From a plasmid, in assembly GCF_988243305.1 (NCBI RefSeq), contig NZ_OZ547142.1: a stretch of 1,549 nucleotides of DNA; one strand, written 5' to 3'. Shown piece by piece: positions 1 to 1,549 of the stretch; position 1 is the stretch's first letter; each line of letters begins with the position of its first letter. A program made the position numbers and the translations under genes. The notes below the pieces were generated by a model. The model saw nothing but the letters and a program-made list of their open reading frames with translations. It did no database searches and had not been told where the DNA came from.

Positions 1-196
1 CACTGGTCAACAAAGACGGTGATATTCAGCGCCGAATCATGGCCATGTTTTCAAATTGAGCTAGCGGCAGGCGGACAATCAGGGGCTACGTGTTAACGTT
101 CTGACCATGATTGTCTATCCTGCATTGCTCTTTTGCCGCCTCAAAATCCTTTGCGTGTTTTTGCTCCCCGTTCTCCAGAAAAAACCGAGCCGCCAC

Positions 197-626: not shown

Positions 627-680
627 CATTGAGCACTTACGCACTGATGCGGGGTGTCGGGGTGAAGCCCTGACCAAGTG

Positions 681-727
681 GTAATCGTATCGGCGTGCAT
701 GCGCGGTTATACGATTACACATCCTGT
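681..727 (+). other. Perfect 10-bp inverted repeat followed by a CATCCTG|T motif (IncP/MOBP-type nic consensus YATCCTG|Y); candidate relaxase recognition site
   Basis: GTAATCGTAT (681-690) and ATACGATTAC (709-718) are perfectly complementary, with an 18-nt spacer containing GCATGC. CATCCTGT at 720-727 begins 2 nt after the proximal arm, putting the putative nick (726/727) 8 nt from the repeat. An 8-mer of this kind can occur by chance. Confidence 0.3.
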
Positions 728-839
728 CCCGATTTCTGAGGCGTTTTAACGGTGAACGGACGGCAAAAACACGATGGAGCTGTTGAACGTGAAAACCACG
801 AAATCTGGCAAAAATCACGGCTGGCGAGGCTTGCATAGG

Positions 840-902
840 TGTAAGCCAGTATACACTCCGCTATCGCTACGTGACTGGGTCAGGGCTTCGCCCCGACACC
901 CC
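840..902 (-). other. ColE1/pMB1-type bom (oriT) nic region homolog; predicted nick on the minus strand
   Basis: The + strand GCCAGTATACACTCCGCTATCGCTACGTGACTGGGTCAGGGCTTCGCCCCGACACCCC (845-902) is near-identical to the pBR322 bom segment as I remember it (GCCAGTATACACTCCGCTATCGCTACGTGACTGGGTCATGGCTGCGCCCCGACACCC). The complementary strand carries ACTGG|CTTA, which I recall as the ColE1 nic sequence; this places the nick between the complements of 846 and 845. Confidence 0.6.
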
Positions 903-998: not shown

Positions 999-1046
999 TG
1001 TCGCATCCTGGATGACACAACGTTGTCGCATCCAGGATGCGACAAC
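999..1046. promoter_or_regulatory. Two tandem palindromic operator-like sites (25-bp period) immediately upstream of the -35 region
   Basis: Copy 1 (999-1021, TGTCGCATCCTGGATGACACAAC) and copy 2 (1024-1046, TGTCGCATCCAGGATGCGACAAC) match at 20/23 positions. Copy 2 lies in a perfect 25-bp palindrome (1022-1046, 12+1+12, centre A1034). Copy 1 is an imperfect palindrome around T1009. Core of each is CATCC-N-GGATG. Confidence 0.55.
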
Positions 1047-1131: not shown

Positions 1132-1549
1132 ATGTTTATTGATTCAGAAAAACGACTGAAACAACTTTCAGATGAGGCAAAGAAAAACACCGAGGATCTC
1201 GAAGAAGCAAAGAAAAATTCAAGGTTTACACAGGTATCCCCAAAAGGTTGGGAACGTGTTCGAGAGCTGCTGAAGGATAGCCAAGGCATATCAGCACTGA
1301 AGCTGTACTCATTTTTAGCGGAGCATATCGATCCTACGTGTGGCGCTGTCGTTGCGGATCAGCAATTCCTAGCTGAAAAACTTGGAGTTAGCAGAAGCAC
1401 AATTATTCGGTGGCTCAATTACTTAGAATCAAAAAATGCATTAGTTAGAATCCCCGTTGCTGGTAAGGTTTGTGCGTATGCCCTCGATCCACATGAAGTC
1501 TGGAAGGGATACAACACTACGAAAAACCATGCAGCGTTTGTCACTAAAA
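1132..1549 (+). CDS. Partial ORF (3' end beyond window) encoding a winged-helix DNA-binding protein with RepL-like replication-initiator architecture
   Basis: ATG at 1132 is the first start after an in-frame TGA at 1090-1092 and is preceded by AGAGGGA at 1118-1124. 139 codons read without a stop to the window end, which is presumably why it is absent from the ORF track. Translation begins MFIDSEKRLKQLSDEAKKNTEDLEEAKKNSRFTQ (charged, K/E-rich) and continues ...ISALKLYSFLAEHIDPTCGAVVADQQFLAEKLGVSRSTIIRWLNYLESKNALVRIPVAGKVCAYALDPHEVWKGY. The helix-turn-helix followed by G-x-hydrophobic-x-A-L-(N/D)-P-x-E pattern matches my recollection of staphylococcal pSN2-type RepL (Pfam RepL family). Family assignment is from memory, not a search. 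Confidence 0.6.
   Translation, partial: MFIDSEKRLKQLSDEAKKNTEDLEEAKKNSRFTQVSPKGWERVRELLKDSQGISALKLYSFLAEHIDPTCGAVVADQQFLAEKLGVSRSTIIRWLNYLESKNALVRIPVAGKVCAYALDPHEVWKGYNTTKNHAAFVTK

Follow-up and report, generated by a model that had tools for sequence, protein, structure and literature searches.

Using the complete sequence of a circular plasmid of 1549 bp and of the pKL1 / Col(MG828) type (the window, i.e., the whole stretch of DNA analyzed), we find that positions 648-735 probably constitute an orphan transfer origin (oriT) that belongs to the IncI complex, of the R64 type that is served by NikA and NikB (MOBP1), on a plasmid that encodes only RepA. We put the probability of this reading at about 80%.

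Dozens of plasmids, each of 1549 bp and found in E. coli, Klebsiella or E. fergusonii, match the window end to end at 99.5-99.7% identity, and 332 near-full-length copies of the pKL1 type are present in PLSDB, where pKL1 is already typed as "mobilizable" (MOB-suite). pKL1 itself (NC_002145.1) is 100% identical to the window over 640-760. The sole annotated gene is repA, the product of which is a 158-aa helix-turn-helix protein. The remaining open reading frames of the window gave no NCBIfam match, and the plasmid therefore contains neither a relaxase gene nor a gene for a relaxosome accessory protein, i.e., with an oriT present and no relaxase encoded, it is an orphan-oriT plasmid (pOriT). Open reading frames of 173 aa, 110 aa and 96 aa overlap the oriT region; without a family match, these were taken as spurious. 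An Rfam scan of the whole window (E<=1) returned one meaningless lncRNA match and nothing else, and a scan of 600-1200 returned no promoters or terminators. The oriV of pKL1 is reportedly located directly upstream of repA and contains Rep-binding sites (PMC3832669); this reported position next to repA corresponds to approximately 940-1130 in the window, apart from the site at 681-735. Upstream of repA we also observe a perfect 13-nt hairpin (AAGGGCGTTGCGT / ACGCAACGCCCTT, in 905-933), then an AT-rich stretch, and after this two 23-nt palindromic repeats (999-1021 and 1024-1046). The hairpin at 905-933, the AT-rich stretch and the 23-nt repeats (940-1046) presumably represent oriV and the RepA operator. 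The gene and the parts of the I-type site are as follows:

Start 1132, crossing the window end to position 59: repA, annotated gene
648-735, plus strand: whole I-complex (R64-type) orphan oriT homologue, identified by blastn and by alignment with the R64 oriT
651-679, plus strand: distal conserved module, GGGGTGTCGGGGTGAAGCCCTGACCAAGT, also the left arm of a 29-nt long inverted repeat
656-662 / 668-674, plus strand: short hairpin in the distal module, GTCGGGG / CCCTGAC
681-697, plus strand: distal arm of the 17-nt inverted repeat, GTAATCGTATCGGCGTG, of which the first 10 nt pair perfectly
702-718, plus strand: nick-proximal arm, CGCGGTTATACGATTAC, equivalent to the "repeat A" of R64 and the predicted NikA-binding site
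719-731, plus strand: nick region, ACATCCTG|TCCCG, with the predicted cut at G726|T727

An earlier note on this DNA had described a perfect inverted repeat with a YATCCTG|Y motif next to it, in a MOBP1 (RP4-type) layout with the proximal arm 8 nt from the nick; the repeat, the motif and the layout are all present. The 10-nt arms GTAATCGTAT (681-690) and ATACGATTAC (709-718) are perfect complements. They are the outermost 10 positions of a longer, imperfect repeat of 17 nt (681-697 / 702-718), in which 12 positions form Watson-Crick pairs, 2 form G-T pairs and 3 are mismatched. The motif, CATCCTGT (CATCCTG|T), occupies 720-727, and with the proximal arm ending at 718, this leaves 8 nt to the predicted cut. 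A cut at 726|727 is predicted from the MOBP consensus YATCCTG|Y together with nicking work on R64, which we take to place it between G726 and T727. As single-stranded DNA, 645-735 folds as two hairpins (z-score -3.0). In R64, the nick-proximal repeat arm is the NikA-binding site according to work cited in PMC4743918. Related CATCCTGG cores, also pointed out by the earlier note, do occur inside both repA operator repeats (1004-1011, plus strand; 1032-1039, minus strand), but they lie outside the oriT homology and are without the final pyrimidine and the following TCCCG, and we found no link between these operator cores and transfer.

A sensitive blastn search with 640-760 returned approximately 3570 plasmids, of which 1905 are typed as conjugative. 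These conjugative matches (approximately 1900, MOBP/MPF_I) align to 650-735 of the window at 75-91% identity, and matches outside the pKL1 family have E-values down to 1e-28. The seven conjugative matches that we inspected belong to types IncI-gamma/K1, IncK2/Z and IncI1/B/O and all contain a MOBP relaxase and MPF_I; in 7 of 7, the match is located approximately 14 nt upstream of the start of nikA (alias mobA), which is followed by nikB. In R64 itself, the window aligns over approximately 90 nt with the sequence between genes that directly precedes nikA, and this sequence is the R64 oriT (PMC4743918). Identity over the oriT region is 81% with R64 (80.7% over 88 nt) and 91% with an IncK2/Z plasmid. 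The elements occur in a common order, i.e., the distal module GGGGTGTCGGGG..AAGCCCTGACCA with its short hairpin, the 17-nt inverted repeat, an 8-nt spacer and CACATCCTG|TCCCG, so that homology to the region upstream of nikA-nikB, the nick region and the 17-nt repeat with 8-nt spacing, by which an I-complex oriT is recognized, are all found here. The proposal that a second oriT is present, on the opposite strand to the ColE1-type bom and of a different family, is borne out by this alignment of approximately 90 nt with I-complex oriTs.

To describe conservation, we aligned 17 I-type oriTs, comprising the window, small plasmids (five with the transfer-site block of the window, two of these with the same RepA, and three others) and conjugative plasmids (seven). 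Across these 17 sequences, the nick region CACATCCTGTCC does not vary; it is the same as in R64, and the base that follows is C in 14 and T in 3. The distal module is near-invariant in 17 of 17, and its hairpin (656-674) is 99% paired, with no variation across the alignment. Across the 17 sequences, 96.6% of cells in the repeat are paired, and five of the seven outermost pairs tested of the long repeat contain compensatory changes. None of 500 shuffles reached the observed covariation score, a count that is not a probability, since the aligned sequences are related; in slid controls, where partner columns were moved by 1-3 positions, pairing falls to 31-45%. Constraint on the repeat is nevertheless clear from these slid controls, and also from the occurrence of several different types of arm. 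Repeat and motif are thus conserved in related plasmids, which is the check that the earlier note had set for its own refutation.

Comparison of the repeat arms points to a particular class of helper. The proximal arm CGCGGTTATACGATTAC and the nick region are identical over 32 nt to those of the IncK2/Z plasmid pLH10-b-1-A, whereas only 12 of 17 positions of the arm equal those of the R64 arm, GACGGTATTACAATTGC. Between NikA proteins of different arm classes, the C-terminal halves are conserved and the N-terminal DNA-binding halves are divergent, with the NikA proteins of R64 and pLH10 being 65% identical overall. Because the stretch of arm plus nick region is identical to that of an IncK2/Z plasmid and, through its arm, differs from that of R64, we predict that an I-complex plasmid of the K/Z class would be the best helper, rather than R64 itself or an IncP plasmid. 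The distal arm is weaker than in the conjugative plasmids, with 12 of 17 Watson-Crick pairs in the window vs 15-16.

Sister plasmids differ in this same repeat. We examined four other plasmids of approximately 1.4-1.55 kb, all with the transfer-site block of the window, and all three oriT-like segments (I-type, ColE1-type and IncX4-type) are present in all four, two of which have the same RepA. Identity to the window is 94-100% for their IncX4-type and ColE1-type segments but only 79-92% for their I-type segments. One sister plasmid, pMRSN480738_1.6 (1551 bp), encodes an identical RepA protein and differs from the window in 57 aligned columns, all of them within 534-840, with 100% identity outside this region. 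The differing positions group in two places, the primosome-assembly-like (pas-like) element and the arms of the I-type repeat, with most of them in the repeat and none in the nick region, and the proximal arm of this plasmid, GACGGTATTACATTTGC, equals R64 at 16 of 17 positions. Such an R64-like arm is present in two plasmids with a RepA protein identical to that of the window. The occurrence of a K/Z-like or an I1-like arm with the same RepA looks like allele replacement by recombination and suggests that oriT alleles are swapped. Plasmids of 1462 bp and 1433 bp have the transfer-site block in common with the window and a repA region that could not be aligned with it.

Other parts of the plasmid are also found in other plasmids. 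The non-coding block 73-642, which contains the IncX4-type oriT, a 178-nt element and the pas-like element, is present at 81% identity in a 4.2-kb RepL plasmid (NZ_CP023652.1, 1080-1697). From this and from the 1462-bp and 1433-bp plasmids, the block seems to be a module that is passed from one replicon to another. The 178-nt element (255-432) is sharply bounded and is approximately 81% identical to three direct copies (7681-7855, 26189-26366 and 27045-27222) in NZ_CP045715.1, a 34-kb plasmid bearing a type IV secretion system (T4SS), where two of the copies flank ccdAB; the element is also present in the 4.2-kb RepL plasmid. Comparison with the R64 leading region, made to test for a single-strand promoter or ssi element, revealed no similarity; the 178-nt element also gave no Rfam match, and it folds no better than shuffles (z approximately -0.8, both strands). 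In the Salmonella plasmid pSSSE-03_b_RI (Col(MP18), 2257 bp), two inverse I-type oriTs are present (766-852, plus strand; 1184-1264, minus strand) that differ in arm class, one being pLH10-like (K2/Z) and the other having GGGAATGTC/GACATTCCC arms, in an arrangement that resembles the published pBuzz.

The I-type site lies next to a ColE1-type bom, which is encoded on the opposite strand, and the features on this side are the following:

841-902, minus strand: ColE1-type bom/oriT, 98% identical to ColE1 1462-1521 over 60 nt
841-850, minus strand: predicted ColE1-type nick ACTGG|CTTA, with the cut between 846 and 845
874-902, minus strand: right arm of the 29-nt long inverted repeat, which is the distal module of the ColE1-type oriT
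556-614, no strand assigned: primosome-assembly-like element with AAGCGGAAGAG, 83% identical to ColE1 1309-1367

The ColE1-type ACTGG|CTTA that had been placed about 120 bp away on the opposite strand is located exactly so, with its cut on the minus strand 120 nt from position 726. Approximately 4400 mobilizable plasmids match 841-902, and the ColE1 bom is recognizable here with its nic sequence included. The ColE1 bom and the I-type oriT have a module in common, GGGTGTCGGGG.GAAGCCCTGACC.AGT (also GGGTGTCGGGG..AGCCCTGACC.AGT), and the opposed orientation of the two oriTs turns its copies into the 29-nt inverted repeat (651-679 / 874-902, 93% complementary), with both predicted nick sites located between the arms and facing each other. 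In R64, the distal module has been linked to termination. Likeness between the ColE1 bom and the I-type oriT is limited to this distal module; the former contains no counterpart of the repeat and nick region at 681-731 and is nicked at ACTGG|CTTA. Homology to each parent oriT stops within approximately 10 nt past its nick. For mobilization by way of the site at 841-902, a ColE1-like plasmid in the same cell would have to supply Mbe proteins, as is known for vectors that are bom+ and mob-. The element at 556-614, which we label pas-like on the assumption that it corresponds to the n'-pas sites of ColE1/pBR322, may be a primosome-assembly-type signal that primes complementary-strand synthesis; ColE1 1309-1367 is on the same side of the ColE1 bom as 556-614 is in the window. 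The overlapping region 447-611 is 79.5% identical to 10875-11039 of the IncX4 plasmid pSH696_34, upstream of the rep gene of that plasmid.

A third site, which the earlier note had not remarked on, is present on the plus strand, beginning 14 nt past the repA stop:

73-133, plus strand: IncX4-type orphan oriT homologue, 85% identical to both oriT copies of pSH696_34
74-84 / 105-115 and 116-123, plus strand: inverted repeat GACAATCAGGG / CCATGATTGTC, then directly the putative nick motif TATCCTG|C

The two oriT copies of pSH696_34 are inverted, one located 87 nt upstream of the relaxase operon, ddp1-taxC (with ddp1 as taxA), and the other near rep, and a two-oriT arrangement has been described for IncX plasmids (PMC3402527). 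The segment 73-133 is homologous to these duplicated, inversely oriented IncX oriTs, and as a single strand it folds with a z-score of -4.8. It resembles the IncX (R6K-type, TaxA/TaxC) oriTs in its 85% identity, which includes 23 nt (CCATGATTGTCTATCCTGCATTG), and differs from the IncX arrangement in that the window contains one copy, without taxA/taxC and without the long inverted repeat. By analogy, this site would need TaxA and TaxC. The IncX4-type and I-type sites are unrelated but for the ATCCTG core, with 18 of 65 nick-anchored positions identical.

For the I-type site, analogy with R64, pEC156 and pBuzz suggests how transfer would proceed. In a donor containing an I-complex conjugative plasmid, the ribbon-helix-helix protein NikA of the helper would bind the arm at 702-718 and recruit the relaxase NikB, which would cut the plus strand at G726|T727 and stay on the 5' end. 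The type IV secretion system of the helper would then export the plus strand 5' to 3', with the oriV-repA side entering first and the inverted repeats at 681-718 and 656-674 entering last, where they may aid termination and recircularization. Taken together, the three orphan oriTs would give several independent routes of mobilization, and the plasmid can probably hitch rides with several helper plasmids. We also propose, tentatively and as something that we consider possible but short of probable, that the pKL1 family consists of triple-oriT hitchhikers (IncX4/I-complex/ColE1, 1.5 kb, no mob gene), in which the NikA-binding repeat recombines and the nick region stays fixed, so that the repeat matches the NikA class of circulating helpers, i.e., a specificity switch that tracks the helper.

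Several other explanations of 681-735 were weighed against an I-complex oriT. The earlier note had allowed that the 8-mer could be a coincidence, in which case motif and palindrome would co-occur by chance in the bom region. An 8-mer is short, and its chance expectation is approximately 0.2 in the earlier note and 0.14 by our calculation; YATCCTGY was seen twice in the window, the second being TATCCTGC at 116-123, and 2 of 200 shuffles reach two. It is the homology of approximately 90 nt, found in thousands of plasmids including approximately 1900 conjugative ones, and not the motif statistics, that excludes chance; with the covariation of the repeat, coincidence is already refuted, and we assign it a negligible probability. 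The same note had called the nic IncP-like, and the YATCCTG|Y core with a repeat 8 nt upstream would fit an IncP (RP4/RK2-type) oriT recognized by TraJ and TraI, which resembles the window in its ATCCTG nick core and in an inverted repeat approximately 8 nt 5' of the nick. Our RP4 oriT query, which was authenticated at 100% identity against IncP-1 records, has only ATCCTG-CCCG in common with the window; the best local alignment is 10 nt (6-9 nt core), a score equalled by 152 of 300 shuffles, and no similarity to the RP4 oriT was found beyond the core, i.e., in the TraJ-binding repeat arm. Every conjugative match inspected was an MPF_I I-complex plasmid. Alignment with the authenticated RP4 oriT, being no better than with shuffles, rules out IncP membership, and we regard this reading as very improbable; the different accessory-protein arms imply a different helper, and mobilization by an IncP helper is expected to be negative. 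R64 NikB and RP4 TraI reportedly both fall in the MOBP1 relaxase clade, and the MOBP class and layout are thus correct, even though the helper type is that of the I-complex and not IncP. The hairpin might alternatively have another function, as a component of the ColE1-type bom or as a pKL1 signal for single-strand priming or for replication, as its position between the arms of the 29-nt repeat framing the bom region and the pas-like element nearby could indicate. We judge this highly unlikely, since ColE1 is without a counterpart of 681-735, the pKL1 oriV is reported upstream of repA (approximately 940-1130; PMC3832669), and the same sequence adjoins nikA in conjugative plasmids.

A more serious alternative is that past recombination with an I-complex plasmid left the I-type site behind as a relic that is decaying and has lost both nicking and transfer. 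In favour of this, the distal arm is degenerate and nikA is absent in cis, and there is a precedent in pKPN2, a plasmid with an R64-like oriT that was reported not to be mobilized by R64drd11 (PMC4743918), so that similarity alone is no guarantee of function. Set against this, there is no damage to the nick region or to the proximal arm, both of which are the same as in a living IncK2/Z plasmid, the arms change in a compensatory way across the family while the nick region is invariant, and in two plasmids that encode the identical RepA a different allele is found that is just as intact. Such a combination of intact nick region and arm, compensatory change and an alternative intact allele argues for selection rather than decay, and we consider a relic unlikely and an I-complex oriT to be the better description of 648-735.

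The pKL1 / Col(MG828) plasmids rank with the smallest and most common of E. coli and are often just typed as cryptic. If it is shown that they contain intact oriTs for three relaxase families, this would explain the wide spread of a plasmid with one gene and would provide testable predictions as to the helper by which each allele is moved. The alternative I-type alleles present on plasmids with the same RepA offer a natural experiment on the evolution of specificity between oriT and accessory protein. Neither the I-type nor the IncX4-type site of pKL1/Col(MG828) was described in the open-access literature that we searched, and earlier mention of the R64-like site in the pKL1 papers of 1997-2003 is possible.

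Compared with the I-complex oriTs (R64/ColIb-P9; IncI1, Igamma, K, B/O, Z; NikA+NikB relaxosome), the window has the same architecture of approximately 90 nt and the same GGGGTGTCGGGG...CCCTGACC module. In the conjugative plasmids of this complex, the oriT is immediately upstream of nikA, whereas the window contains neither nikA nor nikB in cis, and it differs from R64 in having a proximal arm of the K2/Z class and a more degenerate distal arm. Orphan and multiple oriTs on small plasmids are already established, and our result refines and extends this known biology. For example, pEC156 contains an oriT-F and an R64-like orphan oriT and is mobilized by F and R64drd11, with transfer abolished when both oriTs are deleted (PMC4743918); pBuzz contains two inverse I-complex oriTs and is mobilized by a B/O plasmid (PMC9282650); and the pCERC7/NTP16 group contains an oriT plus nikA (PMC11389934). 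Like these, the window is a small plasmid without a relaxase that would borrow the relaxase of a helper, often via more than one oriT, but pEC156, pBuzz and pCERC7 are ColE1-type or rolling-circle replicons, whereas the replicon here is that of pKL1 RepA. The combination of oriTs also differs, being I-complex, ColE1 and IncX4 and, unlike in pCERC7, without nikA, and mobilization of the plasmid is predicted from homology.
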